Of a stretch of DNA of 37,371 nt, positions 1-23,742 are shown one piece after another. This DNA comes from Anaerolineae bacterium. GTDB lineage: Bacteria > Chloroflexota > Anaerolineae > JAAYZQ01. The notes beneath the pieces were generated by a model that saw nothing but the letters and a program-made list of their open reading frames with translations, was not told where the DNA came from and did no database searches. How positions within the stretch are numbered: the stretch's first letter is position 1; every line of letters starts with the position of its first letter. The stretch is taken from assembly GCA_041559855.1 (NCBI GenBank), contig JBFFCR010000003.1:1-37371 (forward strand), in the 5' to 3' direction. The position numbers and the translations under genes were made by a program.

Positions 1-118
1 GGCCGAGGACCGCGAGTTCGACCGTCGCTTCCGCCGCGAGGCCAAAGCCCTGGCCCGGCTGGCCCAGGCCCGTGAGACGCACGGACAGCACGAGGAGATA
101 GGATGGTACCACACATGA
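1..118 (+). pseudogene. Truncated Ser/Thr kinase N-lobe fragment, running off the window start
   Basis: Frame from base 2 reads AEDREFDRRFRREAKALARLAQ, matching [22 protein letters not shown] of the downstream kinases. It then diverges and stops at TGA 116-118. Not in the ORF track. Confidence 0.7.
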
Positions 119-1368
119 GAAAACGCACAACGCATCAATCACAGATGGAGCCGCGAGCAGCCCGGCGGCGGGATACAGGCCGTGCCCCCAGGTGGCGAGC
201 AGCTGCACAGCCTGCCCTGCTGGGCGTGCTGTTTCTGTTCGTGGCGCTGCTGCTGAGTGGTTGCAACGGCGACGTGCCCTATGAGGCGCGCCGCCTGCTC
301 TACGAGCTGGAGTCGCTGCTCGATGAGCTCGAACCGCTAGTGGAGGCCGCGCGCTGGGCCTTTGCCATTGCCGGCCTGGCACTGCTGGTCGCCGGCTACA
401 AGATCTACCGTTTCGTGATCGCGCTGCCAGGCTTTGTGATCGGCGCGCTACTGGGCGCTGGGCTGGGATACGCTGGCGCCGACGAGAACTGGCTGATGGC
501 CATCCTAGGGTTGATCCTTGGCGGCATGGCAGGGGCGGCGCTGGCACTGCTGCTCCACGACCTGGCCGTGTTCCTCCTCGGCGCCCTGATCGGCGGCGCC
601 CTCGCGGCGCTGGTCTTTGCCGGACTGGGCGACTCGGGGCCGCCGCTGCTGCCGGTGCTCATCGGCGCGATTATAGGCGGCGCGGGCCTGCTGGCCCTGT
701 CGCACCTGTGGATCGTGGTGCTGTCGTCCTTTGTCGGCGCAGTGATGTTCGGCTTTGGCGTCGATGCCGACCCGGGCTGGATGCTGATCTTTTTCCTGGG
801 TGGCATCGCGGTGCAGTATGGGCTGGCGCGGGCGATCGGCGACAGGATCCCGAGACCGGGGGCCAGGGCGGAGCCAGCAGCGGGACCAGCAGCGCCTGTT
901 CCCAGGGCGCCTGTCCCGCCGCCCGCAGCTCCCAGCCCTGACATCACAGCGCCCATATCTACGGCTCCGCCACCGGGCATAGCGCCCAGGCAAGGCATCA
1001 CCGCGCCCATATCTGCAGCGCCGCCGCCGGCACAGGGGGTCCAGGTGCCCTCCGCAGCTCCTCAGGCTGCCAGCGCGCCAGCGGCCACGCTGGTCAGCAC
1101 CGGTCCGGGTGGCGAGATCTACCAGGTCCGGGATGGCAGCCTGGTGGGCCGGGGTGAAGGTTGTGAAATCTGGCTGCGCGACCGGACCGTCTCGCGCAGG
1201 CACGCCCGCTTTCGCTATGCCCAGGGGATCTGGTACGTGCAGGATGAGGGGAGCACGGCCGGCACCATGGTGAACGGCGTGTATGTGACGGCCACGCGCC
1301 TCCGTGCGGGTGACCGGATCCAGTTGGGCGATTCGATCTTTACCTTCCAGACCGGAGCCAGCATATGA
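103..1368 (+). CDS. Multi-pass membrane protein (DUF4203-like Gly-rich TM bundle) with Pro-rich linker and C-terminal FHA domain (FHA1)
   Basis: GAGGAG RBS at 92-97 and several GxxxG hydrophobic helices. FHA motifs [19 protein letters not shown]. The stop overlaps the K1 start (ATGA, 1365-1368). Confidence 0.85.
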
Positions 1369-3581
1369 TCGACCTGGTGGGCAGGACGCTCAAGGGTCGC
1401 TACCGCATCGAGGCGATGATCGGCCGGGGCGGCATGGCCGAGGTCTACAAGGCCTGGGACACCCACCGCCAGTACCACGTCGCTGTCAAGGTGATGCGCG
1501 AGGACCTGGCGGAGGACCTGGAGTTCGTGCGCCGCTTCCGCCGCGAGGCCCGGGCGCTGGCGGCCCTCGCCCACGAGAATATCGTCCGCTTCTACTCCTT
1601 TGAGCGCGACGGCCGCCTGGCCTTTATCGTCATGGGCTACGTGGAGGGCTCGACCCTGCGCGGGCGGATTCTGGATGCTGAGGAGCAGCCCCTGCCGCTG
1701 GACGAGGCGCTGTCGGTCGCGCGGCAGGTGTGCGCCGCGTTGCACTATGCCCACGGGGAGAACGTGTTGCACCGCGACGTCAAGCCGGGCAACATCATGA
1801 TCCGCCCGGACAGCCTGGTGCTGGTGGCCGACTTTGGCATCGCCAAGGCGGCAGATGCGGCGACGGCGACGACGGTGATGCCCGGCACGCCAGCCTACAT
1901 GTCGCCGGAGCAGTGCCGCAGCGAACCGCTGGACCCCCGCACCGACGTCTATTCGCTGGGCATTGTGGTCTATGAGATGCTCGCTGGGCGGCGCCCCTTC
2001 GTGGGGGACACACACGCGACCACCGGGAGCACGCGGGAGCGGATCCGCTGGGAGCAGGTGCACGCCGACCCACCGCCGCTGCGGGGGCTCAACCCGGGGG
2101 TGCCGCCTGGCGTGGAGGCCGCCGTGCTGAAAGCACTGGCTAAGGAGCCGGGCGACCGCTGGCCCAGCGTGCTGGCCTTCTGGCAGGCGTTGGAGAAGGC
2201 GTTGGGAAGCGCGGCCGAGCCCGTGCCTGCAGCTGCCGCTGTCCCGGTTGCCATGCGACCAATTGCCTCTCCCCAGCAGCAGCGAGCAGCTGTCAGATCG
2301 GTTGCTCAACAGGGTGCGACCTCGCAACCATTGCACCAGCCTGCTCAGCGCGTGGCCCTTCCACCGTGGGCCTGGGTAGCAGGGGGGACGCTCCTGGCAG
2401 CGATGGTGATTGTGGCATTCTTGCTACTTTCGAGGCCAACTCCTGAGCCCCCACTTACAGCCACGCCCACCGAGGTTGTGATAGTCCAGGTGACTACGTC
2501 TGTGCCCGCGCCAGGGTCAACTGCCACGGCAACTCAAACGCCGACTCCGACACATACACCACATCCCGCAGACACCCATACGCCGACCGCCACGGACACA
2601 GCCTATCCCACGGACACCCATACGCCGATCGCCACGGACACAGCCCAGCCCACTGACACTCACACGCCAACGGCGACAGACACCCACACGCCCGTCGTAC
2701 CTACCGACACGCCGAGGCCGACGAGAACGCCGAGCCCGTTGCCGACTCGAACACCGATACCGCCCACCGCCACGCCGGACCAAGGAGCTGACCGAATTGC
2801 TTTCGCCTCCTATCGCGACGGTAACTCAGAGATATATGTCATGAACGCCGACGGCTCCGACCAGACCCGCTTGACAAGCAACGCGGCGGCAGACGAATTC
2901 CCCACTTGGTTGCCGGACGGAAACCGTATCGGCTTTGATTCCGCCCGAGACGGTAACTACGAGGTCTACGTTATGAACGCCGACGGTTCGGGTGTGTCAC
3001 GCCTTACCTATGATCCCACGAGGGATTGGGATGCTGCCTGGTCGCCTGACGGGCAGCGCATCGCATTCACCTGTGGGGGCCAAACTGCCAATGCCGAGAT
3101 ATGCATCATGGACTCCGACGGCTCCCATCGGGTGAACCTGACAAACTACTGGGACAGGGACATGGAACCCGCGTGGTCGCCCGATGGCCGGCGGATTGCC
3201 TTCATGTCAGTACGGGATGGTTATTGGAGCATCTTGGTCATGAACGCCGACGGCTCGGGCCAGACCCGACTGACTGAAGGAGAGGTGGATTTGTCACCCG
3301 CATGGTCGTCTGACGGGCAGCGCATCGCCTTCACCTCCCGGCGTTCGGGATGGCGTCAGATCTACACCATGAACGCCGACGGCTCAGGCCTGGTGCGGCT
3401 GACTAACCACCAGGCTCACGACTACTCCCCCACCTGGTCACCCGATGGGCGACGCATCGCCTTCGTCTCCGAGCGGGACGGTAACGCAGAGATCTATGTC
3501 ATGAACGCCGACGGATCGGGCCAGACGCGTCTCACGAGCAACCAAACGAGCGACGACGCCCCGGCCTGGTCGCCGCGTTAG
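1365..3581 (+). CDS. K1: Hanks-type Ser/Thr kinase - TM - Pro/Thr linker - 6 PD40/TolB-like beta-propeller repeats
   Basis: [24 protein letters not shown] and GTPAYMSPE motifs; LPPWAW followed by a TM helix; six [19 protein letters not shown] repeats (about 2790-3578). Confidence 0.92.
2571..2685 (+). repeat. About 2.7 copies of a 42-bp coding repeat ([14 protein letters not shown]) in the K1 linker
   Basis: Units start at 2571, 2613 and 2655 with GACAC(C/T)CA(T/C)ACGCC. Confidence 0.8.
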
Positions 3582-3653
3582 TGACCTTTCAGAAGACAGA
3601 CTTGAGTTCTCGCCCATCACGTCTCGTGACAGGTCGAGCGGTTTCCGGTAGTC

Positions 3654-3917
3654 TTGGCCGTCAAAGGTGCCGGCTGGTGCGAGGCATTGGACATGGCAGG
3701 CAGTGTATGGCAGTGGACGGCGAGCCTCTACAAGGCCTATCCGAACCTGGCAGACGATGGTCGGAATGACCCCACCGTCGCGGGCTCCCGGGTACTGCGT
3801 GGCGGCTCGTGCGTTGAGGATCCGTCTGGTGTGCGTGGCGCAGTCCGCGGCGTCATGGATGCTCGCTGTAGGGCGACTGACACTGAAGGATTCCGTTGCG
3901 TGAGAGATTCTCCCCAA
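3654..3917 (+). pseudogene. Orphan, degenerate C-terminal fragment of an FGE-sulfatase/CLec domain
   Basis: Reads ALDMAGSVWQWTAS..ADDGRNDP..RVLRGGSC..GFRCVRDSP. The N-terminal half of the domain is missing and conserved N, E and W positions are substituted. Confidence 0.8.
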
Positions 3918-3973
3918 CAGCTACTTGCTGTTGTAGGCGAGACCATATGTGCAGGTTCAAGGATCATGACACC

Positions 3974-6118
3974 ATGCTAGATCTGACAGGACAAACACTG
4001 AAGGGACGCTATCGCATCGAGGCCCTGATCGGCCGCGGCGGGATGGCCGAGGTCTACAAGGCCTGGGATCGGCGGCGCCAGCACCATGTCGCCGTCAAGG
4101 TGATGCGCGAGGACCTGGCCGAGGACGTCGAGTTCCTGCGCCGCTTCCGCCGGGAGGCCGAGGCGCTGGCCCGGTTGGCCCACCGCAACATCGTCCGCTT
4201 CTATAGCTTTGAGCGCGACGACTACCTGGCCTTCATCGTCATGGATTATGTCGAGGGCACCACCCTGCGGCGGCGCATCCTGGATACCGAGGAGCAGCCC
4301 CTGCCCCTGGACGAGGCGCTGTCGATCGCGCAGCAAGTGTGCGCCGCGCTGCACTATGCCCACGGCGAGAACGTGCTGCACCGCGACGTCAAGCCGGGCA
4401 ACATCATGATCAGACCTGATGGCCAGGTACTGGTGACCGATTTCGGTATCGCCAAAGCAGCGGACTCGGCGACGGCGACGACGGTAATGCCAGGGACGCC
4501 GGCGTACATGTCGCCGGAGCAGTGCCGCAGCGAGCCGCTGGATCCCCGCACCGACGTCTATTCGTTGGGCATCGTGGTGTTCGAGATGCTGGCGGGGCGG
4601 CGGCCCTTCGTGGGGGACACGCACGCGACCACTGGCAGTACCCGGGAAAAGATCCGCTGGGAGCAGATCCATGCCGACGCGCCGCCGCTGCGGAGGCTGA
4701 ACCCGGAGGTGCCGCCGGGCGTGAAGGCCGCCGTGCTCAAGGCACTGGCCAAAGATCCGGCGGACCGCTGGCCCAGCGTGCTGGCCTTCTGGCAGGCGTT
4801 GGCGAGCGCTGCTGGTGAGCATGTGCACACGGCTAGCACAGCGCCGGCGCCGACGCCCGTCCGAGGGGCGCCGATCTCCATAGCCGCTCCCTCCCTGGCG
4901 CCGCGACCAGGCCCAGAGCCGAAGCCCATGTCGGCGCCGTTCAGTGCCGCCACGCCCGCAGAGGCGGCGCCCGACACCCCACCCCAGGCCCGCGCCATGC
5001 TGCCACCGTGGGCCTGGGTTCTCGGGGGCGTGCTGCTGGCAGCGCTCGTGATCATGGCCATCGCGCTACTGTCGTCGCCTCCCCCACCAACGCCCACGAC
5101 CACTGCAGTTGTGGCTGCTCAGGCTACTACGTCTATGCCGGCACCAACGCATGCCCCATCAGCAATCCACACGATTGCGCCGACCGACACTAATGCGCCG
5201 CTGCCCACGGACACGCCCTTACCCACGGAAACCGGTTCACCTACGGCGACAGACACGCCCCTCCCCACAGATACGCGTACACCTGCGGCGACAGACACAC
5301 CCTTCCCGACAGATACCGACACGCCCATGCCGACGGAAACACCTCGCCCGACAGACACTCACACGCCGCCACCGACGGATACGCCTCGCCCGACGAATAC
5401 GCCCAAGCTCTGGACCAGGTCCGAAGATGGGATGGTGATGGTCTACGTACCGGCGGGCGAATTCCTGATGGGCAATTCAGAGGACGTGAGCGGCATCGCA
5501 GCGCCGGAGCACACAGTCTACCTCGACGGGTTCTGGATAGACCAAACGGAGGTAACCAACGCTCAGATGCAACTCTGCGTACAGGATGGACATTGTGAGC
5601 CGCCACCGAACTGTCGATGGGGTCCGGCCCCCTGCCCAGCCCCGGACACGGCAGATCACCCAGTGGTGTGCATGTCGTGGTATGGAGCACAAGAGTACTG
5701 CGCCTGGGCTGGGGGACGGTTGCCGACGGAGGCGGAATGGGAGAAAGCAGCACGGGGCACCGACGGGAGGGAGTACCCGTGGGGCGATGCTGTGCCGACC
5801 TGTGAGCACGCGCAATTCGAGCCATGCGACGGGACGACGACGGCGGTGGGGAGCAAGCCAGAAGGAACCAGTCCGTATGGCGCGCTGGACATGGCGGGTA
5901 ATGTGTATGAGTGGGTAGCCGACTGGTATGACCCAAACTACTACGAGAGCTCGCCATCCTTGAATCCGCAGGGTCCAGCATATAGCCCATACCGTGTGTA
6001 CCGCGGGGGTTCGTGGCTTGGCTTCCCAAGCAACCTGACCTGTTGGGGGCGCGGCCGCGAAGATCCCTATGTTCACCAATGCTATCTCGGTTTTCGTTGC
6101 GCCATGAATGCTCCCTGA
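3974..6118 (+). CDS. K2: Ser/Thr kinase - TM - Pro/Thr linker - FGE-sulfatase (CLec-fold) domain
   Basis: Start moved to ATG 3974 by alignment to paralogs (MLDLTGQTLKGRY) and the shared AGGATCATGAC leader. Full kinase motifs. FGE motifs EVTN, RLPTEAEWEKAARG, DMAGNVYEW, RGGSW, GFRC. Confidence 0.92.
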   Translation: MLDLTGQTLKGRYRIEALIGRGGMAEVYKAWDRRRQHHVAVKVMREDLAEDVEFLRRFRREAEALARLAHRNIVRFYSFERDDYLAFIVMDYVEGTTLRRRILDTEEQPLPLDEALSIAQQVCAALHYAHGENVLHRDVKPGNIMIRPDGQVLVTDFGIAKAADSATATTVMPGTPAYMSPEQCRSEPLDPRTDVYSLGIVVFEMLAGRRPFVGDTHATTGSTREKIRWEQIHADAPPLRRLNPEVPPGVKAAVLKALAKDPADRWPSVLAFWQALASAAGEHVHTASTAPAPTPVRGAPISIAAPSLAPRPGPEPKPMSAPFSAATPAEAAPDTPPQARAMLPPWAWVLGGVLLAALVIMAIALLSSPPPPTPTTTAVVAAQATTSMPAPTHAPSAIHTIAPTDTNAPLPTDTPLPTETGSPTATDTPLPTDTRTPAATDTPFPTDTDTPMPTETPRPTDTHTPPPTDTPRPTNTPKLWTRSEDGMVMVYVPAGEFLMGNSEDVSGIAAPEHTVYLDGFWIDQTEVTNAQMQLCVQDGHCEPPPNCRWGPAPCPAPDTADHPVVCMSWYGAQEYCAWAGGRLPTEAEWEKAARGTDGREYPWGDAVPTCEHAQFEPCDGTTTAVGSKPEGTSPYGALDMAGNVYEWVADWYDPNYYESSPSLNPQGPAYSPYRVYRGGSWLGFPSNLTCWGRGREDPYVHQCYLGFRCAMNAP

Positions 6119-6234
6119 TCGTTTTTCAACTGAGAGCTATCAGATCGGAGCAGTTCCGGGCAGTAACCCGGCGGGGGATTGGGCGGTAGATCTGGTAAGG
6201 CCTCTGGTTGTGTGAAGGATACAAGGAGGTACCG

Positions 6235-9200
6235 ATGTCTAAAAGACCACTGAAGGCACAGCGCTTGGTGGCTATCGTGCTGATTAGTGCGCTCGTCCTG
6301 AGCGGGTTGCCCCTATCGCCACCGGCGCAGGCGGCCACGTCCTCCCTCCAGTCCGGAGGAGATCAGGTCCTGTCCAACGAGGATCTGTCCCTCAGGCTCT
6401 ACGGCAGCGGGGTCTTTACGCTCGCCAGTGCTGACGATCGGGCGCTGCTCTTCCCGGCAGGTACCTCCTACGTGTCGGTGTGGGTCGACGGCGCGGCCTA
6501 TACCGGTTCGCCGGTCGCGCTGGTCGGGGGGAACACGATCAGCCGGGAAGAGGGCCCGCGCCTCACTGGGTCCAACCAGGCCGAAGAGGTCTTTATCACC
6601 GCGGAAGGTGTGCGATTCACCCTCACCTACAGCCTGGTCGGACCGGCCGTCCGCTTCAGCGTCAGGGCCCAGAACGAGGGGGCCGCGTCCCACAGGGCCA
6701 AGACCCGGTACCTGCTCGACACCCAGGTGGACGAGAACGATGGATCGCCGCTGTGGTCGAGCGGCAGCGTGTACACCGCCGAGGCCGAGGTCTCGCCGTC
6801 AACCACGATTTTCAAAGGCTATGACAAGATCCCGGAACCCGATTTCACCTCCACCGGCATGCTGGTGACCCGTCCCGAACGGATGGCCTTTGTTCACTGG
6901 CCCACGGCCGTGGACTATGCCTGGGACTACACGCTGGACCCGGGCCAATCCTTCTACACGCCGGGATACACCGAGAGCCCCCTGAGCGACAGCGCCGTCC
7001 TGCTCTACTACGACCTGGGCGAGCTGGCGCCCGGCGCGTCTGCCGAGGCCGAGTTCTACTATGGCTTGGCCGTTCCAGAGGAAGAAGCGGCGGCTGACAC
7101 CCTGCTGCTCGAGCTGGAAAGGACACGGGGTGCGATTCAGGCGCGGATTGATGCCGACCTTGACCGTCTGGCCGAGATCCACACCCGCACCTACCGGGCT
7201 GTCTACGGGCATACCGGTCCCCCAGGCATCGTCGACTCGCTGACCAGTGGCGTCAAGCTGGGGGAGGCCGCGATATTCTTCGGTGAGACAGCGCATGCGG
7301 GGGAATTGGTCGTTGCAGGCGTCGGGCTGGCAGGCAAGCTGATCCTTGCCGGCATGAGAGAAGAAACAAAGTCCGATGTCGAAGAGGCGCTGCCTGCCAT
7401 CTACCGCGATCTGGCCCTAGAGCCCAGCGATCCTACTCTGCCCACAGAGGTGCGGAGTACTTTGGACGAGTACCTGGGATTCCGATACCACCAGCAAGAG
7501 ATCGACGCCGACTTTGCCGAGTTGGAGCAGACCATCCGGGAGGACGGCCTCCCGCCTGACTATCCCATCGAGCGAGTAGTCGCCGCCCTGCGCGCCTATC
7601 GCAGCCAGTTGGAGCTCACAAGCGATCAGGAGGCCCTGTTGCTCTGGCCAGGGGCCAGCCAGCATACCACAGCCTACCAGCCCAGTGGCCTACTGGCGCA
7701 GCATCTCCGCTTCAGCCAGGCTCTGGAGGACCGTGAAAACCTGGCCGGTGGGCTGCAATGGACAGGCTATGCCCTCAAGGTTGGAGTGGTGGTTGGGCTC
7801 GGCCTCAAGATCTGTGCCGCCGTGGCGACCGCGGGCGCATCCATCCCGTTGGAGACAGTGGTCACCGTCGCAGCGGTGGGTGGCACTGCCCTAAGCCTCG
7901 GTGGGGGCGCTGTGGAAGAAAGCGCCGTCGAGCGACATGCTTTTGCGGCTGTGCAGTCGGCAATCGTCGCATCCGTGGAGCTGTACCTGTTGGAAGCGTC
8001 GGCCGGCGACGTGGTCTCGGCTATCGAGGACTCGCTCAGCGACGCCACGGGGTGGAACGCCGAGGGAGCAGTGGTCCGCGTCGCGTTGCAGGACATCATC
8101 CTGAGCGAGGGCGAGGACGTCGGCACAGCCCAGGGCTCGGTCACGGTGCGCAACACTGGTGACGCAGACGCAGAGGTCTCGCTCTACGCCACCGTCCTCG
8201 GACCTACCAGCACGGACCGGGCGCCGATCGCCATGCTTGGCCAACCCGAGCCGGTGACCGTGCGCGCCGGTGAAGAGCAAGAGATCGCGTTCGAGTATGG
8301 TGCGCCGGACACCCGGCTGTGGCGCCAGGCCAGCGCCTATCCGGTGGATCTCTGGGTGTCTATCGGATATGGTCTTATTCACGTGTCAGACAACCCGGAT
8401 CTGGCGGGCACTTTGCAGGTGTTGGTGGGCAGTCGAGACGCCGTGGAACTGCTGCGATACGGCGATCAGACCGTGATCCACGCCGCCGATCTGAGCGAGG
8501 ACGAGTTCAGCCGCAGAGAGTTCACCATCAGTCCGGACGCGGCGACGACGACCCTCGATCTGTCGTACACCGGTAGTGACTTTGACCTGCACCTGTACGA
8601 CATGCAGGGCAACCACGTCGGCCTGAACTATGACACGGGTCAGATCGATGCTCAGATTGCGGACGTGACCTATTCGGGACCATCCGCCAGGCCCGAGTGG
8701 ATGGAGATCAACGGACGAGGCGGCGAGACCTTTGAGGTGGAGGTCGTAGCTGTGCAGGCTGAGGTGCCGGAGCGCTTCACCGTCGTGAGCCGCGAGCTAC
8801 CGGCCTTCCCGGGGATGCTGGGGGCTGACCCCCTGGACATCTTTGTGTCGGAATCCCCCCCAGATACGATCGAGGCTGAGCTCGCCGTGTACGAGTATGG
8901 GGGCCAGAGCGGCGTATCTGGCATCACAGGTCAGGTGGAGTCGCTAGAATCCGAGGGTGGACGGACGATATCGGGCGACGAGTTCGAGCTCGACCTGCCC
9001 CGTGCACTCGATGCAGGGGAGACAGCCTCCGGTTCGGTGCGCCTTGGCGCGCGCTCGTTGCGCCCGGGTACCTACTCTGGCATCGTGCGCCTCTCTGGCG
9101 TGGATGCCGCGTCAGGCGCATCCACGGAGGCCTCGGCAAGATTGCAGATCTATGTGCCGGGCGAGGATGGTCCGGGTGACGGTGGAGACGGCGCGGGATT

Positions 9201-9609
9201 GGGCCTTGCCGTCGCCCTCGTCGTGGTAGCCGTGGCAGGTCTGGCTGTGTATGGACTTGTGCGCAGGCAGCAAAGGAGACCGGTGGCGGCAGGCGAAGGC
9301 GCGGTGGGGCCTGCAGTAGTCGCTCCCGCCAGCCTTTTCGTCATCCATGAGTCCGGCGCAGGCCAGCAAATCCCGCTGAGTGGTTCCCTTACCATCGGTC
9401 GTGCGGGGGATAATGCCGTGCGCCTGGCGGACACTGCCGTCTCGCGCCGCCACGCTGTCATCCGCTATGCCCAGGGACGCTGGTTCATCCAGGACCAGGG
9501 CAGCACGGTGGGCACCTTTGTCAACGGCCAGCGGGTCGATGCCACCGCCTTGAGCAATGGCGATCGCGTCCGCATTGGCGACACCGAGTTCGAGTTCCGC
9601 AGCAGTTGA
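6235..9609 (+). CDS. Large exported, single-pass protein with multi-domain ectodomain (including a PPC-like domain) and cytoplasmic C-terminal FHA domain (FHA2)
   Basis: AAGGAGG RBS before ATG 6235 and a signal peptide ending near AQA. SDFDLHLYD is a PPC-like motif. TM helix followed by RRQQRR, then FHA motifs GR..SRRHA..DQGSTVGTFVNG. Confidence 0.85.
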   Translation: MSKRPLKAQRLVAIVLISALVLSGLPLSPPAQAATSSLQSGGDQVLSNEDLSLRLYGSGVFTLASADDRALLFPAGTSYVSVWVDGAAYTGSPVALVGGNTISREEGPRLTGSNQAEEVFITAEGVRFTLTYSLVGPAVRFSVRAQNEGAASHRAKTRYLLDTQVDENDGSPLWSSGSVYTAEAEVSPSTTIFKGYDKIPEPDFTSTGMLVTRPERMAFVHWPTAVDYAWDYTLDPGQSFYTPGYTESPLSDSAVLLYYDLGELAPGASAEAEFYYGLAVPEEEAAADTLLLELERTRGAIQARIDADLDRLAEIHTRTYRAVYGHTGPPGIVDSLTSGVKLGEAAIFFGETAHAGELVVAGVGLAGKLILAGMREETKSDVEEALPAIYRDLALEPSDPTLPTEVRSTLDEYLGFRYHQQEIDADFAELEQTIREDGLPPDYPIERVVAALRAYRSQLELTSDQEALLLWPGASQHTTAYQPSGLLAQHLRFSQALEDRENLAGGLQWTGYALKVGVVVGLGLKICAAVATAGASIPLETVVTVAAVGGTALSLGGGAVEESAVERHAFAAVQSAIVASVELYLLEASAGDVVSAIEDSLSDATGWNAEGAVVRVALQDIILSEGEDVGTAQGSVTVRNTGDADAEVSLYATVLGPTSTDRAPIAMLGQPEPVTVRAGEEQEIAFEYGAPDTRLWRQASAYPVDLWVSIGYGLIHVSDNPDLAGTLQVLVGSRDAVELLRYGDQTVIHAADLSEDEFSRREFTISPDAATTTLDLSYTGSDFDLHLYDMQGNHVGLNYDTGQIDAQIADVTYSGPSARPEWMEINGRGGETFEVEVVAVQAEVPERFTVVSRELPAFPGMLGADPLDIFVSESPPDTIEAELAVYEYGGQSGVSGITGQVESLESEGGRTISGDEFELDLPRALDAGETASGSVRLGARSLRPGTYSGIVRLSGVDAASGASTEASARLQIYVPGEDGPGDGGDGAGLGLAVALVVVAVAGLAVYGLVRRQQRRPVAAGEGAVGPAVVAPASLFVIHESGAGQQIPLSGSLTIGRAGDNAVRLADTAVSRRHAVIRYAQGRWFIQDQGSTVGTFVNGQRVDATALSNGDRVRIGDTEFEFRSS

Positions 9610-9625
9610 GAGGAGTCGGGAAGCG

Positions 9626-11512: not shown

Positions 11513-11606
11513 CTTCGTCCTGGGGAGTGAATGGGCTTCGCTGCAGAGACAACCTCGGGGCACAGCTTTGTGACACGAAGACCAGCATACTGGTGAAAGG
11601 ATCAAC

Positions 11607-13625: not shown

Positions 13626-13639
13626 ACTGGAGGGTTTTC

Positions 13640-15619
13640 GTGAAGATCCGCGAGCAGTTCACTTCTGAGATCGACAAGGGGTATGCGGTCGGTTGGGCGT
13701 CCGCCACACGGCTGTTGGTAGTGTCCATCATGTTGCTGTCAGGGGTGCTGTCATGTGGTGAGCACCCTGCGCCCCAGATCACAGCAACTGCGGTTCCCAC
13801 GGCAGTCTTGGCAACCGCCGTGCCCACCATGGCATCCGAGCCCAGCCCGACCTCACCGGAGGAGCCTGGAACCGCTGAAGCGGTGGTCTCGCCGGTTGTG
13901 CCCTCAACTCCCGTCACGAGTGCCAGCGCAGAGCCTACACCACCATCCGTGACGCCGACGGCAAAGGCGGAACAGCCCTTGGTTCCATCGATCACAGAAC
14001 TTGAGGCGATGCTGGCCCAGATGTCGGTGCGGGACAAGGTGGCCCAGATGGTGATGGTCGGCTTTCACGGGCGCTCCATTGACGAGTCGCCCGAGCTCGC
14101 GACGATGGTTGGGGAGTATCACGTCGGCGGGCTGGTCCTGCTGGAGGCCAACGCCCACGATCCTGCCCAGGTGCAGAGGCTCACCGGAGAGCTACAGGCG
14201 CTCGCGACATCCTCGGGTGCTGGAATCCCTCTCTTCATCTCGATCAACCACGAAGGCGGGATCGTCATCCGGATAACAGAAGGGATCACCGAATTTCCCG
14301 GGAACATGGCGGTCGGCGCCACCGGCCTGCCCCAAAACGCCTATCTCGCCGCAGCGCTGGGCGGTGAGGAACTGAGGGCCATGGGCATCAACATGAATCT
14401 GGCCCCCGTGTTGGACATCAACGACAATCCCCTCAACCCGATCATCGGCACGCGGTCTTTTGGTGCTTCGGCCCCGATGGTAGCCGAATACGGGCGGTTG
14501 GCAGTTCGGGGCATGCAGGAGCGGGGCGTGATTGCCGTGGCCAAGCACTTTCCGGGGCATGGCGGCGTGGCTGTGGACTCGCATGGGGGGCTGCCGGTGA
14601 TAGAGGCATCGGCTGAGGCCCTGTGGCAGCACGAGCTGGTACCCTTTCGGGCTGCTGTGGAGGAGGGCGTGACCGGCATCATGACGGCGCACATCTCGCT
14701 GCCGGCCCTGGATGCCACCGGCAGGCCGGCCACCCTGTCACCCGAGATCCTGACAGGGCTGTTGCGAGAACAGATGGGCTACGATGGGCTGATCATGACC
14801 GATTCCCTGGGCATGGCCGGTGTCTCCAAGGATCGCGGGCAGGTGCAGGCCGCCATCGAGGCCGTGCAGGCCGGCGCAGACATCCTGCTCTCCACCTCCC
14901 CCATGGATGCCCATGTCGCGATCATAAAGGCGCTGGCCCAATCTGTGCGGCAAGGAGAGATCCCCCTCGAGCGCATCGACCGTTCGGTGATGCGGATCCT
15001 AAAGGCCAAAGCGGCCTACAGCCTATTCCAGCCTCTTCCATCCGATCTCAGTCGCGTCGGCTCGCCACAGAACAGGGCCACTGCCGAGGAGATTGCGCTG
15101 CAGGCGGTCACGGTTGTGCGGGACGCTGACGGCAACATCCCCCTGCCGCCCACGACAGCCAGCTTGCTGGTCATCAGCCCCAGTGAGTTGCCACGCGCCA
15201 CCGAGGGCCAGGGGACCCGCTTCGCCCAACTCTTGCGCGAGCGGGGCTACTTGGTAGACGAGCTGGTCTTTAACCCCAACTTGGCCGATAGCCGCGCTGA
15301 GGTGGCTGCCAGCGCCAAAGCCCGGAGCCCAGAGTATGACGCCGTGCTGTTTGGCGAGTGGGAGTTGATCAAGCGGTTCGTGAACCTGGGTGACGTCTGG
15401 GAGGAGGAGCTGATCGGCGCGCTGCAGCAGAGCAGCCGCACGCTGATCGTCGTGGCGTGGCACAATCCAGCCGCGATCCTGCGCTGCCCGGAGGTGACCG
15501 GGTTCATAGCAGCATACGACAATTCTGCCGCTCAGGTGGAAGCGGTAGTGGCCGTGCTGAACGGTGAGCACAAGGCGACGGGAGAGCTACCGATGCCGCT
15601 ACCCACCAGTGGAGACTGA
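13640..15619 (+). CDS. nagZ: GH3 beta-N-acetylhexosaminidase (NagZ-like), probable lipoprotein with Pro/Thr linker
   Basis: GGAGGG RBS and GTG at 13640; lipobox-like VLSC. Motifs NLAPVLD, RSFG, KHFPGHG..DSH and the nucleophile context MTDSLGM, followed by a GH3 C-terminal domain. Confidence 0.85.
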   Translation: MKIREQFTSEIDKGYAVGWASATRLLVVSIMLLSGVLSCGEHPAPQITATAVPTAVLATAVPTMASEPSPTSPEEPGTAEAVVSPVVPSTPVTSASAEPTPPSVTPTAKAEQPLVPSITELEAMLAQMSVRDKVAQMVMVGFHGRSIDESPELATMVGEYHVGGLVLLEANAHDPAQVQRLTGELQALATSSGAGIPLFISINHEGGIVIRITEGITEFPGNMAVGATGLPQNAYLAAALGGEELRAMGINMNLAPVLDINDNPLNPIIGTRSFGASAPMVAEYGRLAVRGMQERGVIAVAKHFPGHGGVAVDSHGGLPVIEASAEALWQHELVPFRAAVEEGVTGIMTAHISLPALDATGRPATLSPEILTGLLREQMGYDGLIMTDSLGMAGVSKDRGQVQAAIEAVQAGADILLSTSPMDAHVAIIKALAQSVRQGEIPLERIDRSVMRILKAKAAYSLFQPLPSDLSRVGSPQNRATAEEIALQAVTVVRDADGNIPLPPTTASLLVISPSELPRATEGQGTRFAQLLRERGYLVDELVFNPNLADSRAEVAASAKARSPEYDAVLFGEWELIKRFVNLGDVWEEELIGALQQSSRTLIVVAWHNPAAILRCPEVTGFIAAYDNSAAQVEAVVAVLNGEHKATGELPMPLPTSGD

Positions 15620-15667
15620 GGGGCGCGATGTTCCCATGGCCGCTTGCCTGAGCATTCCCAACGGTGA

Positions 15668-15696
15668 TTGACAGCAACGGAGAATTCGCGTATACT
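15668..15696 (+). promoter_or_regulatory. Near-consensus sigma70-type promoter upstream of K5
   Basis: TTGACA (15668-15673), 17-nt spacer, TATACT (15691-15696). It is intergenic and ends 23 nt before ATG 15720. Confidence 0.75.
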
Positions 15697-15719
15697 TGTC
15701 GCGAACCCGGAGTAACAAG

Positions 15720-18700
15720 ATGCCCAACCTGGAAGGACAGATCCTACTAGACCGCTATAGCATCCTCGAACTGATCGGCCGGGGCGGCATGGCCGAGGTC
15801 TACAAGGCCTGGGACACCTGGCGCAACTACCACGTCGCCGTCAAGGTCATGCGCGAGGACCTGGCTGAGGACCTCGAGTTCGTGCGCCGCTTCAAGCGCG
15901 AGGCCCGGGCCCTGGCAGCCCTGTCTCATGCCAACATCGTGCGCTTTTACTCCTTCGAGCGCGACGATCTGACCGTTTTCATCGTGATGGACTATGTCGA
16001 GGGCACCACCCTGCGGGCCGAGATCGCCCGTGCTGCGGGCCCCCTGCCCCTGGAGCGGGTGCTGGATGTGACCGCACAAGTGGGCGCGGCCCTGCACTAC
16101 GCCCACATGGAGGGCGTGCTGCACCGCGACGTCAAGCCCGGCAACATCATGGTCGCGCCGGGACGCGGCGAGGAAGGCCGCGACCTATTCCTGGTCACCG
16201 ACTTTGGCATCGCCAAGGCGGCCGACGCGGCGACGGCGACCACCGTGATGCCCGGCACGCCGGCCTACATGTCGCCCGAGCAGTGCCGCAGCGAGCCGCT
16301 GGACGAGCGCTCGGACGTCTATTCGCTGGGGATCGTGGTGTACGAGATGCTGGCGGGGCGGCGGCCGTTTGTGGGGGACACCGAGGCGACGACCGGCAGC
16401 ACCCGGGAAAAGATCCGCTGGGAGCAGGTGCACGCCGAGCCGCCGCCGCTGCGGGCATTCAACCGCGAGGTACCGCCCGGGGTTGAGGCCGTGCTGCGCA
16501 GGGCATTGACCAAGGAGCGGGAGGACCGCTGGCCGACGGCGCTGGCCTTCTGGCAGGCCCTGGCGAGCGCGGCTGGCGAGCAGGCGCCCGCGGGCGCCGC
16601 AGCGCCTGCGGTTGCCGAGACACCCGCGCCGCCCGTGCGAGCGGAAGTCGAGCCTGTGGTCGCGCCGTTCCCAACACCGCAGCCGGTGCGAGAACCGGAG
16701 CCCGTGCCCGCGCGCCAGCCAGAACCGGAGCCAGAGCCTGCACCGGTCAGTGCCGCACCCGGCCCCCGAACCGGGGCACGGCGGGCGGCGCTGCCGCCGT
16801 GGGCCTGGGTGGCGGGCGGTGTGCTGCTGGCTGCTCTGGTGATCCTGGCGCTGGCATTGCTGTCCGGTGGGACGCCGCTTGCGATTGTACCGACACCCAC
16901 GCGTAACTGGACGCCAACACCCACCCCCACGCCCGCGCCTACCCGCACCCCGACACCGGTGCCTCAGTTTGCGCAGGCCATCTCCCCGTCCACGGCTGAC
17001 CAAATTGCCGAGGTGGCCCGATGGGGCAGGGGCAGAAACACTCGAACCGCCCTCTCTCTCGATGGCTCCCGCCTTGCGATCGCTTCATCTATCGGCGTCT
17101 ACCTGTACGACGCGCGGACACTGGAAGAGGAGTGGTTCGCTGAGTCGGACGCCTGGACCTCCAGCGTGGCCTTCAGTCCGGACGGCGAGACCCTGGCCTC
17201 CGGCTCAGGCGATACCACGGTACGTCTGTGGCGGGTGAGCGATGGCAGCCTGCTGCATACCCTGGAGGGGCACGAGGGTGCGGTATACAGCGTGGCCTTC
17301 AGTCCCGACGGAGAGACCCTGGCCTCCGGCTCGTTCGATAACACGGTTCGGCTGTGGAGGGTGAGCGATAGCAGCTTGCTGCGCACCCTGGAGGCGCACG
17401 AGGGCGCTGTGCTCAGCGTGGCCTTCAGTCCCGATGGCGAGACCCTGGCCTCCGGCTCGTACGACGACACGGTGCGGCTGTGGCGGGTGCGTGATGCCAG
17501 CCTGCTGCATACCCTGGAGGACCGTAGTAGCTTTGTGTTCAGCGTGGTCTTCAGTCCCGATGGCGAGACCCTGGCCTCCGGCTCATTGGATGACACGGTG
17601 CGGCTGTGGCGGGTGCGGGATGGCCGCCTGCTGCGTGCCCTGGAGGGGCACGGAGGCGATGTGAAAAGCGTGGCCTTCAGTCCCGATGGCGAGACCCTAG
17701 CCTCCGGCTCAGACGACAACACTGTACAGCTGTGGCAGGTGCGCGATGGCCGCATGCTGCATACTCTGTATGACCACGAGGATACAGTGCACAGTGTGGC
17801 TTTCAGTCCCGATGGCGAGACCCTATTCTCTGGATCGTACGACACGGTGCGTTTGTGGCGGGTGAGCGATGGCAGCCTGCTGGATACCCTGGAAGGCCAA
17901 AATAGCGTTGTGTACAGCGTGGCCTTCAGTCCCGACGGAGAGACCCTTGCCTCTGGGTCGTCCGACGACACGGTGCGGCTATGGCGGGTGCGCGATGGCA
18001 GCCTGATGCATACCCTGGAGGGGCACGAAGGCGGTGTGCTCAGCGTGGCCTTCAGTCCCGATGGCGAGACCCTGGCCTCGGGCTCGTACGACGACACGGT
18101 GCGGCTATGGCGAGCGAGCGATGGCAGCCTGCTGGACACCTTGGAGGGCCACGAAAGCCTTGTGTACAGTGTGGCCTTCAGTCCCGACGGAGAGACCCTG
18201 GCCTCTGGTTCATACGATACCACGATGCGGCTGTGGCGGGTGCGCGATGGAAGCCTGCTGGACACCCTGGAAGGGTACGTGTACAGTGTGAACAGCGTGG
18301 CCTTCAGTCCAGACGGAGAGACCCTGGCCTCCGGTTCATCGGACGACATACTGCTGTGGCAGGCGCGCGATGGCCGCCTGCTGGACACCCTTGAGGTTGG
18401 TCATAATAGCATTGTGTTAAGCGTCGCCTTCAGTCCCGACGGAGAGACACTGGCCTCCGGTTCGCAATATGATAACACGGTGCGTCTGTGGCGGGTGAGC
18501 GATGGCCGCATGCTCAATACTTTTGAGGCGCACGAGGACTGGGTAAGGGGTGTGACCTTCAGTCCCGACGGCGAGATCCTGGCCTCCGGCTCGTGGGACG
18601 CCACGGTGCGACTGTGGCGGGTGAGTGATGGGCGCCTATTGCATACACTGGAAGGGCACACAGGTCAGGTGTACAGCCTCACCTTCAGTCCAGAGGGGAC

Positions 18701-18761
18701 AATACTGATCTCCAGCTCATCCGATGGCACGATCCGGCTGTGGGGTGTGCCGCAGGATTGA
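15720..18761 (+). CDS. K5: Ser/Thr kinase - TM - Pro/Thr linker - tandem WD40 propellers (13 conserved + 1 degenerate repeat)
   Basis: Start at ATG 15720 (MPNLEG), full kinase motifs, LPPWAW + TM, and repeated SVAFSPDGETLASGSxDxTVRLW. Confidence 0.92.
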   Translation: MPNLEGQILLDRYSILELIGRGGMAEVYKAWDTWRNYHVAVKVMREDLAEDLEFVRRFKREARALAALSHANIVRFYSFERDDLTVFIVMDYVEGTTLRAEIARAAGPLPLERVLDVTAQVGAALHYAHMEGVLHRDVKPGNIMVAPGRGEEGRDLFLVTDFGIAKAADAATATTVMPGTPAYMSPEQCRSEPLDERSDVYSLGIVVYEMLAGRRPFVGDTEATTGSTREKIRWEQVHAEPPPLRAFNREVPPGVEAVLRRALTKEREDRWPTALAFWQALASAAGEQAPAGAAAPAVAETPAPPVRAEVEPVVAPFPTPQPVREPEPVPARQPEPEPEPAPVSAAPGPRTGARRAALPPWAWVAGGVLLAALVILALALLSGGTPLAIVPTPTRNWTPTPTPTPAPTRTPTPVPQFAQAISPSTADQIAEVARWGRGRNTRTALSLDGSRLAIASSIGVYLYDARTLEEEWFAESDAWTSSVAFSPDGETLASGSGDTTVRLWRVSDGSLLHTLEGHEGAVYSVAFSPDGETLASGSFDNTVRLWRVSDSSLLRTLEAHEGAVLSVAFSPDGETLASGSYDDTVRLWRVRDASLLHTLEDRSSFVFSVVFSPDGETLASGSLDDTVRLWRVRDGRLLRALEGHGGDVKSVAFSPDGETLASGSDDNTVQLWQVRDGRMLHTLYDHEDTVHSVAFSPDGETLFSGSYDTVRLWRVSDGSLLDTLEGQNSVVYSVAFSPDGETLASGSSDDTVRLWRVRDGSLMHTLEGHEGGVLSVAFSPDGETLASGSYDDTVRLWRASDGSLLDTLEGHESLVYSVAFSPDGETLASGSYDTTMRLWRVRDGSLLDTLEGYVYSVNSVAFSPDGETLASGSSDDILLWQARDGRLLDTLEVGHNSIVLSVAFSPDGETLASGSQYDNTVRLWRVSDGRMLNTFEAHEDWVRGVTFSPDGEILASGSWDATVRLWRVSDGRLLHTLEGHTGQVYSLTFSPEGTILISSSSDGTIRLWGVPQD
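17155..18745 (+). repeat. About 13 tandem ~126-bp WD40-coding repeats with high DNA similarity
   Basis: GTGGCCTTCAGTCCCGA(C/T)GG(C/A)GAGACCCTGGCCTC recurs at about 126-bp period. Confidence 0.92.
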
Positions 18762-18799
18762 TGATTCGATCAGGACGATTATCATAGGATCATGACGAC

Positions 18800-20821
18800 A
18801 TGCTCGACCTGACGGGAAAAACACTCAAAGGGCGCTACCGCATCGAGGCGCTGGTCGGCCGCGGCGGGATGGCCGAGGTCTACAAGGCCTGGGACACCCA
18901 CCGCCAGTACCACGTCGCCGTCAAGGTGATGCGTGAGGACCTGGCCGAGGACCTGGAGTTCGTGCGCCGTTTCCGCCGCGAGGCCCGGGCGCTGGCGGCC
19001 CTGTCCCACGCCAACATTGTGCGCTTTTACTCCTTTGAGCAGGAGGGCCGGCTGGCCTTCATCGTCATGGACTATGCGGAGGGGACGAGCCTGCGGGGCA
19101 GGATCCTTGATGCGGGGGGCAAGCCCCTGCCCCTGGAGGAGGTGCTCTCCATCGCACGGCAGGTGAGCGCCGCGCTGCACTATGCACACAGCGAGAACGT
19201 CCTGCACCGCGACGTCAAGCCGGGCAACATCATGGTCGCGCCGGGCCGTGGCGAGGGAGGCAAAGACCTGATTCTGGTGACCGACTTTGGCATCGCCAAG
19301 GCGGCCGACGCGGCGACGGCGACGACGGTGATGCCCGGCACGCCGGCCTACATGTCGCCCGAGCAGTGCCGCAGCGAGCCGGTGGACGAGCGGTCGGACG
19401 TGTACTCATTGGGCATCGTGGTGTACGAGATGTTGGCCGGGCGGCGGCCCTTTGTGGGGGACACCGAGGCGTCCACCAGCAGCACGCGGGAAACGATCCG
19501 CTGGGAGCAGGTGCACGCCGACCCGCCGTCCCTGCCGCGATTCAACCCCGAGGCGCCGCCGGGGGTGGAGGCCGTGCTGCGCAGGGCATTGGCCAAGGAG
19601 AAGGAACACCGCTGGCCGACGGCGCTGGCCTTCTGGCAGGCGTTGGCGAGTGCGGCCGGGGAGCAGACGCCAGCGGGCGCCGAGACGCCTGCGGCGCCCG
19701 TGCGAGAAGCCGAACCCTTGCCCGCGCGACAGCCGCAACCGGAACCGGAGCCAGAACCTCTGCCCCCCAGTGCTGCCGCACTAGAAGAAGCTGCGCCCGG
19801 TGCCCGAGCCCCGGCACGGCGCGGAACGCTGCCGCCGTGGGCCTGGGTGGCAGGCGGGGTACTGCTGGCCGGGTTGGTGATTCTGGCGCTGGCGTTGCTG
19901 TCAGGTGGGACACCCAAAGCGATTGCGCCGGCCCCCACGGCAACTTGGACGGCCACACCGGCAACTACCCATACACCCCGTGCCACGGCGACTCCGGCCG
20001 GCCCGTCAAAGGGCGACACCTGGTCCCGGCCCGCAGACGGGATGGTTATGGTGTACGTGCCGGCGGGGGAGTTCCGGATGGGCAGCACGGAGCAGGAAGT
20101 CGATGATGCGTTGGAGTTGTGCAACCAATATCGTGACGATTGCGAGAGATCTTGGTTCGAAGATGAGCTGCCAATGCATCAGGTGCATCTGGAAGCCTAC
20201 TGGATCGACCGGGCGGAGGTGACCAACGCCCAGTTCGCAGCCTTCATGAACGAGCAAGGCAATCCGGTAGAAGGCGGTGTCCCCTGGCTGGACCTGAGCG
20301 ACGTAGATTGCCTCATTGAGCAAACGACGAACGGCTACAAAGCCAAGGAGGGCTATGCCGACCACCCGGTGATCGAGGTGACGTGGTACGGAGCCCAGGC
20401 GTACTGCCAGTGGGCCGGAGGACAGCTTCCGACAGAGGCTCAGTGGGAGTACGCGGCACGGGGGCCGAATCGGCTGCTTTACCCGTGGGGGAGCAGCCCG
20501 CCAGCCTGCGAGTACGTACATTACCAGGCATGCGCAGGGCTAACCCTGCCCGTGGATGGCAAACCACTTGGGGCTAGTCCCTACGGCGCGTTAAACACGG
20601 CAGGGAATGTGTGGGAGTGGACAGCTAGCCTCTCTCAGACTTATCCCTACCAGGCTGATGATGGTAGAAATGATCCTAACGCAGCGGGGGACAGGATACT
20701 GCGTGGGGGCTCGTGGGGCGACTATCCGCACAATCTGCGCACCGCAAACCGTGTGCCGAACCATCCAGTTGACTCCGGTATGTATAAAGTCGGGTTTCGT
20801 TGCGCCAAGGGGATTCCCTAG
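18800..20821 (+). CDS. K6: Ser/Thr kinase - TM - Pro/Thr linker - FGE-sulfatase (CLec-fold) domain
   Basis: AGGATCATGAC leader, full kinase motifs and LPPWAW + TM. FGE motifs EVTNAQF, LPTEAQWEYAARG, GNVWEW, RGGSW, GFRC. Confidence 0.92.
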   Translation: MLDLTGKTLKGRYRIEALVGRGGMAEVYKAWDTHRQYHVAVKVMREDLAEDLEFVRRFRREARALAALSHANIVRFYSFEQEGRLAFIVMDYAEGTSLRGRILDAGGKPLPLEEVLSIARQVSAALHYAHSENVLHRDVKPGNIMVAPGRGEGGKDLILVTDFGIAKAADAATATTVMPGTPAYMSPEQCRSEPVDERSDVYSLGIVVYEMLAGRRPFVGDTEASTSSTRETIRWEQVHADPPSLPRFNPEAPPGVEAVLRRALAKEKEHRWPTALAFWQALASAAGEQTPAGAETPAAPVREAEPLPARQPQPEPEPEPLPPSAAALEEAAPGARAPARRGTLPPWAWVAGGVLLAGLVILALALLSGGTPKAIAPAPTATWTATPATTHTPRATATPAGPSKGDTWSRPADGMVMVYVPAGEFRMGSTEQEVDDALELCNQYRDDCERSWFEDELPMHQVHLEAYWIDRAEVTNAQFAAFMNEQGNPVEGGVPWLDLSDVDCLIEQTTNGYKAKEGYADHPVIEVTWYGAQAYCQWAGGQLPTEAQWEYAARGPNRLLYPWGSSPPACEYVHYQACAGLTLPVDGKPLGASPYGALNTAGNVWEWTASLSQTYPYQADDGRNDPNAAGDRILRGGSWGDYPHNLRTANRVPNHPVDSGMYKVGFRCAKGIP

Positions 20822-21757: not shown

Positions 21758-21775
21758 GTGTCGACGGGAGGAGCC

Positions 21776-23740: not shown

Positions 23741-23742
23741 AA

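Follow-up and report, generated by a model that had tools for sequence, protein, structure and literature searches.

A tandem array of receptor Ser/Thr kinases with one shared chassis and probably exchanged sensor tips in an Anaerolineae genome

Bacterial receptor Ser/Thr kinases undergo species-specific bursts of expansion and carry highly varied outside domains, and the Anaerolineae, which are filamentous bacteria, possess many of them. How an existing kinase acquires a new sensor can seldom be followed step by step. In a single 37-kb contig of an Anaerolineae bacterium (JBFFCR010000003.1 of assembly GCA_041559855.1, here C3), such steps appear to have been caught in a tandem array of six receptor-type kinases, termed K1 to K6, which share a closely similar chassis and end in different tips. 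The window analysed here is the whole of this contig (37,371 nt), which belongs to a metagenome-assembled genome (MAG) of 4.1 Mb in 608 contigs that is 86% complete with 6% contamination. Nearly every gene of the contig lies on the + strand, and the gaps between genes are short (Table 1).

The six kinases match Pkinase in Pfam with E values of 1e-50 to 1e-55, and their catalytic motifs VAVK, HRD, DFG and SPE are intact, as are those of the more distant K7 in the alignment. Each kinase has one hydrophobic 19-mer after the kinase and juxtamembrane parts, at residues 332-393 (338-356 in K1). Intact catalytic motifs and a single transmembrane (TM) helix followed by a C-terminal domain are the features of receptor-type, PknB-like Hanks kinases, and the C-terminal PD40, FGE, SH3_3, WD40 or VWA domains of K1 to K7 would thus be extracytoplasmic. 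Kinase-domain ratios of nonsynonymous to synonymous divergence (dN/dS) of 0.16-0.33 indicate purifying selection on K1 to K6. The FGE-sulfatase fold of the FGE tips is supported by Pfam matches to PF03781 (E 1e-45 to 1e-55) and by sequence matches in the PDB to CalU17, human FGE and bacterial FGE; by eye, a Cys pair seems to be missing after RGGSW in these tips, where the catalytic Cys would be expected.

An earlier reading of the DNA sequence alone (the sequence-only reading) had proposed a repeated module of three genes, in which a membrane partner is followed by a kinase with a variable tip (X) and then by a kinase with an FGE tip. The architectures FHA1-K1(PD40)-K2(FGE), FHA2-K3(SH3)-K4(FGE) and GH3-K5(WD40)-K6(FGE) are borne out by Pfam. 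The description of the first gene as a membrane partner holds insofar as FHA1, FHA2 and GH3 all have hydrophobic membrane anchors; unlike the other two, GH3 lacks an FHA domain.

Table 1. Genes and gene remnants of the window, with coordinates on contig C3
Feature	Position	Strand	Description
K0 stub	2..118	+	Kinase N-lobe fragment (~family residues 48-70), then stop; at contig edge, overlaps FHA1 start
FHA1	103..1368	+	Multi-pass membrane protein with C-terminal cytoplasmic FHA domain; stop overlaps K1 start
K1	1365..3581	+	Kinase-juxtamembrane-TM chassis to ~2750, PD40 beta-propeller tip 2760-3578; Pfam Pkinase + PD40
FGE relic	3642..3914	+	Non-coding, 91 residues, C-terminal third of FGE domain, directly 3' of K1 stops
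K2	3974..6118	+	Chassis, FGE-sulfatase-fold tip 5411-6115; Pfam Pkinase + FGE-sulfatase
FHA2	6208..9609	+	N-terminal anchor, ~960-residue extracytoplasmic region, TM helix, C-terminal FHA domain
K3	9626..11512	+	Chassis, 18-residue tandem-repeat linker, SH3_3 tip; Pfam Pkinase + SH3_3
K4	11607..13625	+	Chassis, FGE tip 12852-13622; Pfam Pkinase + FGE
GH3	13601..15619	+	NagZ-like glycosidase with N-terminal hydrophobic anchor; 25-nt overlap with K4 end
K5	15720..18761	+	Chassis, tip of 13 WD40 repeats; Pfam
K6	18800..20821	+	Chassis, FGE tip 20015-20818; Pfam Pkinase + FGE
Three FHA proteins	20966..24336	+	FHA3 20966-21757 (3 TM), VWA-Big_7-TM-FHA 21758-23740, FHA4 23743-24336; Pfam, hydropathy
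K7	24396..26216	+	Distant paralogue, kinase-TM-VWA; Pfam
U753	26254..28515	+	V-family member 1, TM-VWA chassis, 468-residue tip of no assigned fold
V2	28891..30780	+	V-family member 2, TM-VWA chassis, FGE tip; Pfam VWA_3 + FGE (1.1e-55)
K8frag	30901..31400	+	Decayed kinase gene, C-lobe deleted, P-loop Gly changed to Arg
VWA3b	31429..33300	+	V-family member 3, TM-VWA chassis, 327-residue tip

Within the array, neighbouring kinases resemble each other most. Kinase-domain identity is 87% for K1/K2, 85% for K3/K4 and 82% for K5/K6, against 71-81% across pairs, and the next best kinase of the same genome is 45% identical to K1 (42 tblastn segments). The similarity within pairs extends through the TM helix into the outside linker and then stops sharply. 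All of the private markers reported for the pairs are present in the alignment, including GDTHATT and a 12-letter marker in K1/K2, DLRRQH, GETQAVT and PRGVDV in K3/K4, and a common six-residue insert before DFG in K5/K6. The sequence-only reading had proposed that a kinase phylogeny should give three sister pairs, and this is what was found, with strong support when close outgroups were included. With 58 kinases from the same genome and 40 relatives as distant outgroups, the six kinases formed one clade (support 100/99) containing K3+K4 (100/100) and K5+K6 (100/95). A search of a large protein database supplied closer relatives of the chassis (58-76% identity), 32 of which were added to give a tree of 38 rows; this recovered K1+K2 (99/96), K3+K4 (100/100) and K5+K6 (100/97), in agreement with a quick tree of 68 rows, and placed K1, K2, K5 and K6 in one clade (96/96). 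Topologies uniting kinases with the same tip type (K2, K4, K6) or the same place in the pair (K1, K3, K5) were rejected at p below 1e-6. Kinase-domain dS is 0.39 for K3/K4, 0.42 for K5/K6, 0.46 for K1/K6, 0.55 for K1/K2 and 0.54-0.85 for the rest, and with such silent-site distances the duplications are not very recent.

The tips have histories different from that of the chassis, with the PD40, WD40 and FGE tips having nearer kin on distant kinases. The FGE tips of K2, K4 and K6 are 36-41% identical to one another by blastp (42-47% by MAFFT), whereas their kinases are 72-78% identical, and the K4 tip shares at most 48% identity with any FGE domain of the 40 related genomes. Identity of the K2 FGE domain is 60%, 54% and 53% to those of kinase-FGE genes in the related genomes G021, G018 and G030, respectively, the kinases of which are 37-44% identical to that of K2 (37% in G021). 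When 11 kinase-FGE genes were compared in all 55 pairings, the kinase identity minus the FGE identity was +36 to +41 for the 3 pairs within the array and -36 to +14 for the others; the negative extremes show that such discordance occurs elsewhere too. In a tree of 46 FGE domains, in which the long branches of K2 and K4 call for care, the tips of the array are scattered: a clade of K2, K4 and K6 was rejected by the approximately unbiased (AU) test (p=0.0025; p=0.005 with V2), and K6 formed one clade with V2 and two outside proteins (100/96). The FGE tip of K6 is 57% identical to that of V2, with 74% nucleotide identity over 485 nt. Within the chassis clade, the FGE tip of K2 shares 56% identity with its counterpart in P0044 and the FGE tip of K6 shares 54% with its counterpart in P0005, compared with 41% between K2 and K6; trees in which the kinases were forced to follow these tip partners were rejected (K2+P0044, p=0.026; K6+P0005, p=0.0017). 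Monophyly of the PD40-bearing kinases as a whole was likewise rejected (p=8e-5). The PD40 tip of K1 shares 60% identity with the tip of a kinase in the related genome G017 (kinase 47%) and 57% with a tip encoded on contig C148 of the array's own genome, the kinase of which is 39% identical to K1. Similarly, the WD40 tip of K5 shares 64% identity over 585 residues with a kinase-WD40 protein of contig C138, also in the array's own genome, whose kinase is 39% identical to K1.

A trace of an earlier tip may be preserved directly behind K1. The 390-nt gap between K1 and K2 contains an FGE relic, which lies in the frame of K1 after three stops and is 46% identical over its 91 residues to the C-terminal third of the K6 FGE domain (tblastn E 2e-17); the relic and the 3' end of K6 are 70% identical over 164 nt. 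It is present, with 0-1 differences, in Logan contigs of two studies, and the homology of the K1 PD40 tip to the C148 tip stops at the stop codon. On the simplest reading, K1 would formerly have been a kinase-FGE gene, the tip of which was replaced by a PD40 cassette.

The kinase domains themselves appear to be mosaics that arose via exchange between non-adjacent copies, which the sequence-only reading had not foreseen. In sliding windows, the N-lobe sequences of K1, K6 and the decayed gene K8frag are 94-98% identical at the nucleotide level, but K1 and K2 there only 80-87%; from the C-lobe onward, K1 tracks K2 and K6 tracks K5. The pairwise homoplasy index (PHI) test on 160 informative sites gave 0.353, compared with 0.377 +/- 0.008 in 2000 permutations (p=0.002), and the incompatible splits (K1,K5,K6) and (K1,K2,K6) are concentrated in the 5' third. 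The N-lobe tree groups K1, K8frag and K6 (92/95) and gives a constrained K1+K2 pair an AU p value of 0.04, while K1+K6 is rejected in the C-lobe tree (p=0.001). In a GENECONV-like run test, K1 and K8frag match consecutively at 41 of 123 polymorphic sites (p=0.0004 per pair; 21 pairs), and they share an exact match of 134 nt, compared with at most 55 nt for every other pair. Such mosaics call for caution with kinase-domain trees in families of this kind, which do not carry the history of the whole gene.

Two decayed pieces of kinase genes accompany the intact copies. K8frag is made up of 14 upstream nt and the initial 292 nt of a gene resembling K6 and K1, followed by a juxtamembrane-like remnant with 43% identity to residues 290-364 of K5; over ~300 nt it is 94% identical to K6 and 91% identical to K1, which lies ~29 kb away. 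With the start of the gene joined to this remnant, K8frag is a kinase gene that has lost its C-lobe. At the K0 stub, nt 1-66 of the contig are 83% identical to nt 144-209 of K2 (self-blastn); the frame-2 translation of the stub reads AEDREFDRRFRREAKALARLA... and then reaches a stop, and kinase-like sequence continues upstream of position 1 in Logan contigs. Both decayed 5' pieces adjoin other genes, K8frag lying directly before VWA3b and the K0 stub before FHA1.

A second chassis family, comprising U753, V2 and VWA3b, shows the same organization. These genes have ~900 nt in common at 87-90% nucleotide identity, from ~30 nt before the start codons onward; the shared part encodes a VWA domain that is nearly identical in all three, preceded by a short cytoplasmic tail, a TM helix and a linker. 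Past this V chassis, they diverge abruptly into three tips, one of them an FGE domain, and the FGE tip type is therefore found on both the kinase-TM and the TM-VWA chassis. The outside C-terminal part of K7 is 35-37% identical to the V chassis. The tip of U753 has no match in Pfam or in the Atlas, and that of VWA3b gives a weak lectin-like lead, with a best Atlas score of 0.89 that falls below the 0.9 level. As to the suggestion that this family repeats the X-then-FGE order, U753(X) does precede V2(FGE), but VWA3b(X) then follows the FGE gene.

The order of the tips in the kinase pairs proved less telling than had been supposed. An FGE tip is indeed second in all three pairs, but chance alone yields this result 1 time in 8. 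The sequence-only reading had named enrichment of the X-then-FGE order in related genomes as its own check and random tip order in homologous arrays as grounds for refutation; by that measure the order rule is not supported, as neither of the two mixed adjacent pairs found shows it. Among 198 outside loci, drawn from two collections and possibly including some duplicates, 226 kinase genes form 35 adjacent pairs: 32 pairs without FGE, 1 with FGE on both genes, 2 with FGE then X, and none with X then FGE. In the two mixed pairs (L073 and L087, both on metagenome contigs), the kinase-FGE gene comes before the kinase-X gene, and L073 reads kinase-FGE, kinase-FGE, kinase-X. Only 1 of the 35 outside pairs (L205, 90%) has a kinase identity as high as the 82-88% of the window. 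Among 35 long FGE-bearing open reading frames (ORFs) taken from the 40 related genomes, 9 are kinase-FGE genes; in 4 of these the upstream flank spans 6.5 kb or more, and none of the 4 has a kinase neighbour. On one short contig of these relatives, an FGE-ending ORF lies upstream of a kinase-FGE gene. Three tandem kinase arrays of relatives have PD40 or unassigned tips and no kinase-FGE gene.

A search of 22 further genomes of the order did not find the chassis clade, and among 400 other genomes sampled in the class it occurs in 1 (G055), which belongs to another family; there, the chassis is 66% identical, and its kinases have beta-helix, FlaA-like and WD40+PD40 tips with neither an FGE tip nor an FHA neighbour. 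When the K1 kinase was compared with metagenome and genome contigs, none of the matches listed exceeded 50% identity, and the nearest named relatives among them were Anaerolineae MAGs. Many unbinned metagenome proteins do carry the chassis (58-76% identity). In this wider clade, sister kinases with unlike tips recur, including P0047 (FGE) with P0045 (LysM) at 100/100, P0005 (FGE) with P0015 at 100/99, and P0006 with P0008 (VWA). Moreover, six kinases that are apparently encoded on one 50,433-nt contig cluster together, with PD40, FGE and other tips.

The sequence-only reading had left two options open. The second, in which a chassis is repeatedly duplicated and one copy acquires a new tip, is supported by the sister pairs, the polyphyletic tips and the FGE relic. 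The array is probably a birth-and-death cluster of Hanks-type Ser/Thr receptor kinases that cross the membrane once, shaped by tandem duplication, recombinational tip replacement and gene conversion. Each kinase would join the one shared chassis (cytoplasmic kinase, juxtamembrane part and TM helix) to an extracytoplasmic sensor tip that can be exchanged. Tandem duplication would place sister copies side by side, after which recombination within the Pro/Thr-rich linker that follows the membrane helix on the outside could swap a tip; in K1, a PD40 propeller would have ousted an FGE tip, leaving its 3' third as a relic. Continuing homologous exchange among the copies, whether adjacent or not and whether by gene conversion or unequal crossing-over, would account for the mosaic kinase domains and for the stubs K0 and K8frag, and the same process would work on the TM-VWA family with its three tips. 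Judging by the protein families alone, several outside signals would feed into one nearly identical kinase output, to be read by the FHA membrane proteins encoded among the kinases. This offers a concrete, testable model of sensor turnover in Anaerolineae. A more ambitious version, which is rather doubtful, holds that the window is a dedicated sensor-diversification locus, in which a recombination hotspot in the low-complexity Pro/Thr linker repeatedly grafts tips from a genomic pool (FGE, PD40, WD40, SH3, lectin-like) onto fixed chassis of two unrelated families in parallel. If this were true, displaced tips and 5' stubs would be left behind as in polymorphic-toxin loci, the locus would be the receptor counterpart of toxin tip-swapping, and selection would favour fast turnover of what the cell senses.

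Several observations weigh against the birth-and-death model or qualify parts of it. With distant outgroups only, K1+K2 is not resolved as a pair, and in a tree of nine rows the pair is absent from the best tree (p-AU 0.44); at silent sites, K1 is no nearer to K2 (0.55) than to K6 (0.46). Once close relatives are added, monophyly of all six kinases falls to 5% of bootstrap trees and K3+K4 are drawn toward P0005/P0015 (86/79), so that the array may hold two kinase lineages. The FGE relic could be the leftover of a separate gene rather than of K1, and it lies behind only one of the three X tips (PD40, SH3, WD40), the gaps after K3 and K5 (95 and 39 nt) leaving no room for another. The boundaries between the N-lobe and C-lobe partitions were picked after the sliding-window result was known. 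Additionally, every kinase core interrupts the Logan contigs, so the phasing of N-lobes with C-lobes comes from the original assembly alone, a limit that weighs most at the 134-nt exact repeat of K1 and K8frag.

Concerted evolution without any exchange of tips is an unlikely account. It supposes six old, distinct genes whose 5' halves (kinase to TM) were homogenised by conversion, chiefly between neighbours, and whose tips were never replaced. The mosaic tracts and the PHI test mean that conversion-like exchange is real, and the tips predate the similarity of the chassis. The FHA domains of FHA1 and FHA2, moreover, are 48% identical, compared with 74% for the adjoining kinases; FHA1-K1 and FHA2-K3 have homologous FHA-kinase junctions, with an alignment of 1015 nt at 75% that runs from the 3' end of each FHA gene into the 5' part of its kinase gene; and in relatives, the arrays L068 and L069 sit behind an FHA gene in operons of the same FHA-then-kinase order. 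However, the FGE relic after the PD40 tip of K1 requires a replacement event, and homology breaks off sharply, in every case within the linker right after the TM helix, with a similarly sharp boundary in the V family. Matched receptor/co-receptor heterodimers, in which co-evolving kinase domains would explain the private markers, are distinctly improbable. Bacterial Hanks kinases dimerise, and the pair members are adjacent, co-directional and closely spaced; in the C-lobe, K1/K2 (dN 0.06, dS 0.50) show less than half the dN of K1/K6 (dN 0.14, dS 0.51) at equal dS, which is compatible with shared constraint. Yet K3/K4 and K5/K6 are closest at silent sites too (dS 0.39 and 0.42), as common descent predicts, and since common descent suffices there, co-evolution is not needed for the private markers; those of K1/K2 are a few residues in variable loops. 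The N-lobe of K1 tracks K6 and K8frag rather than its partner K2, and the arrangement does not recur elsewhere, as seen from the kinase-FGE genes without a kinase neighbour (0 of 4) and the mixed pairs in X-then-FGE order (0 of 2). The co-receptor idea and a birth-and-death cluster are not exclusive and could both hold.

Diversification of the FGE tips by a diversity-generating retroelement (DGR) is scarcely credible. Among DGR targets, FGE-fold domains form the largest class, and one class bears a kinase domain, according to the part of PMC5758913 available; but the 86%-complete genome contains no match to RVT_1 (PF00078) at E<=0.001 and no near-identical, template-like repeat of any tip, and the 49 mismatches between the relic and K6 show no adenine specificity, with 6 of them at adenines of the relic. 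With neither a reverse transcriptase match nor a template repeat nor an adenine bias, this reading was rejected. It is also very improbable that the array or its mosaics are an artefact of mis-joined kinase-core repeats or faulty binning. Such an error would be favoured by the number of contigs (608) and the 6% contamination of the MAG, by the interruption of Logan contigs in all kinase cores, by the 134-nt exact repeat and by the lack of the chassis clade in the 22 genomes of the order. Nonetheless, 5 runs from 2 studies contain the stretch, and independently built Logan contigs of both studies reproduce the join of tip to following gene with 0-1 differences at 2262-4058 (which spans the FGE relic), 4773-9724, 10894-11705 and 12236-13700, junctions with sides shorter than 30 nt having been disregarded. 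Moreover, the six kinase ORFs are all intact, exact matches between copies other than K1 and K8frag do not exceed 55 nt, and the N-lobe of K1 differs from those of K6 and K8frag and is therefore not a copied path. The composition of the contig agrees with the bin, with a GC content of 63.5% compared with 61.5 +/- 1.5% in the 164 contigs of at least 8 kb and a tetranucleotide profile at the 43rd percentile. Horizontal origin or mis-binning of the contig may apply, though its composition fits.

A birth-and-death cluster of receptor kinases is not a new kind of system. Its principle is already shown by pknH1 and pknH2 and by the kinomes of myxobacteria and a planctomycete, of which the locus is a richer instance. 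At the RD900 locus of the M. tuberculosis complex, homologous recombination in the kinase domains of pknH1 and pknH2 yields in-frame hybrid genes, as described in the portion of PMC7785237 available. There, as here, neighbouring receptor Ser/Thr kinase paralogues combine similar kinase domains, a Pro-rich region and one TM helix with unlike sensor domains, and the array shares both the near-identical neighbouring kinases with unlike sensors and the recombination signal in the kinase domains (PHI test, N- and C-lobe trees, K1-K8frag). In that partial account, there are two genes and the outcome is deletion to one, whereas the window has at least six genes plus stubs; a displaced tip relic and a second chassis family are further differences from the system as described, and the sensor folds differ. 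Species-specific clades of Ser/Thr kinases arising by duplication and/or recombination have been described in Myxobacteria (Perez et al. 2008, cited in PMC11032199) and in 'Ca. Uabimicrobium amorphum' of the Planctomycetota (PMC11032199). In the sections of that report available, some copies are adjacent and membrane-bound kinases carry outside WD40 or other repeat domains, as in the window; unlike these genome-wide surveys, the single locus here shows sister pairs, mosaic tracts, a tip relic and stubs. DGR variable proteins also include a kinase joined to a ligand-binding tip of the FGE fold (C-type lectin fold), as far as the excerpt of PMC5758913 goes, but diversity here would reside in the exchange of whole domains rather than within a short block of variable sequence.

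The FGE relic behind K1 formally resembles the displaced tips of polymorphic toxin systems. In those systems, the N-terminal part is constant, C-terminal tips are exchanged via cassettes, and displaced old tips lie downstream. Unlike the polymorphic toxins of the Rhs/CdiA type (treated in PMC3482391, available in part), the products here are receptors and not secreted toxins; the likeness is one of evolution only and the locus is not a member. None of the tips (PD40, FGE, SH3_3, WD40 or unassigned) matched a toxin family, small immunity-like genes not having been searched for, and no conserved demarcation motif of the kind known from polymorphic toxin systems was found. PpkA-Fha1 constitutes the threonine phosphorylation pathway of the Pseudomonas aeruginosa H1 type VI secretion system. 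K7, with its kinase-TM-VWA_3 architecture and the preceding FHA3, VWA-FHA and FHA4, is reminiscent of it. In contrast to PpkA-Fha1-PppA, contig C3 has no PP2C phosphatase (none among the window ORFs scanned; PP2C_2 matches occur only on contigs C297, C146 and C328), and K1 to K6 bear other tips.

Among the remaining features of the window, FHA1 matches FHA in Pfam at 1.9e-18, with a TM7S3/TM198-like match and six hydrophobic segments, and FHA2 matches FHA at 3.2e-20, with hydrophobic segments at 20-38 and 1000-1018; its ~960-residue extracytoplasmic region between anchor and TM helix has no Pfam match. GH3 matches Glyco_hydro_3 at 2.5e-88 and has a hydrophobic segment at 35-53. The kinase of K7 is 42-47% identical to those of K1 to K6. 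The start of K2 at 3974 is backed by the alignment and by the 714-residue database protein P0002, and that of K3 by the 628-residue P0020. At 34000-37371, where GC content falls to 53%, the minus strand carries a PGA_cap (capsule synthesis-like) gene and a truncated gene for a PFL-like glycyl-radical enzyme, the best match of which among the 40 relatives is only 39% identical, leaving it without a close orthologue. Internal repeats are found outside the membrane in two kinases. The linker of K3 contains ~4 tandem copies of a 54-nt (18-residue) unit at 10752-10963 with 84-90% identity. The 13 WD40 blades of K5 have a 126-nt period (17162-18750) and are ~77% identical among themselves at the nucleotide level, which suggests recent internal repeat expansion or homogenisation.

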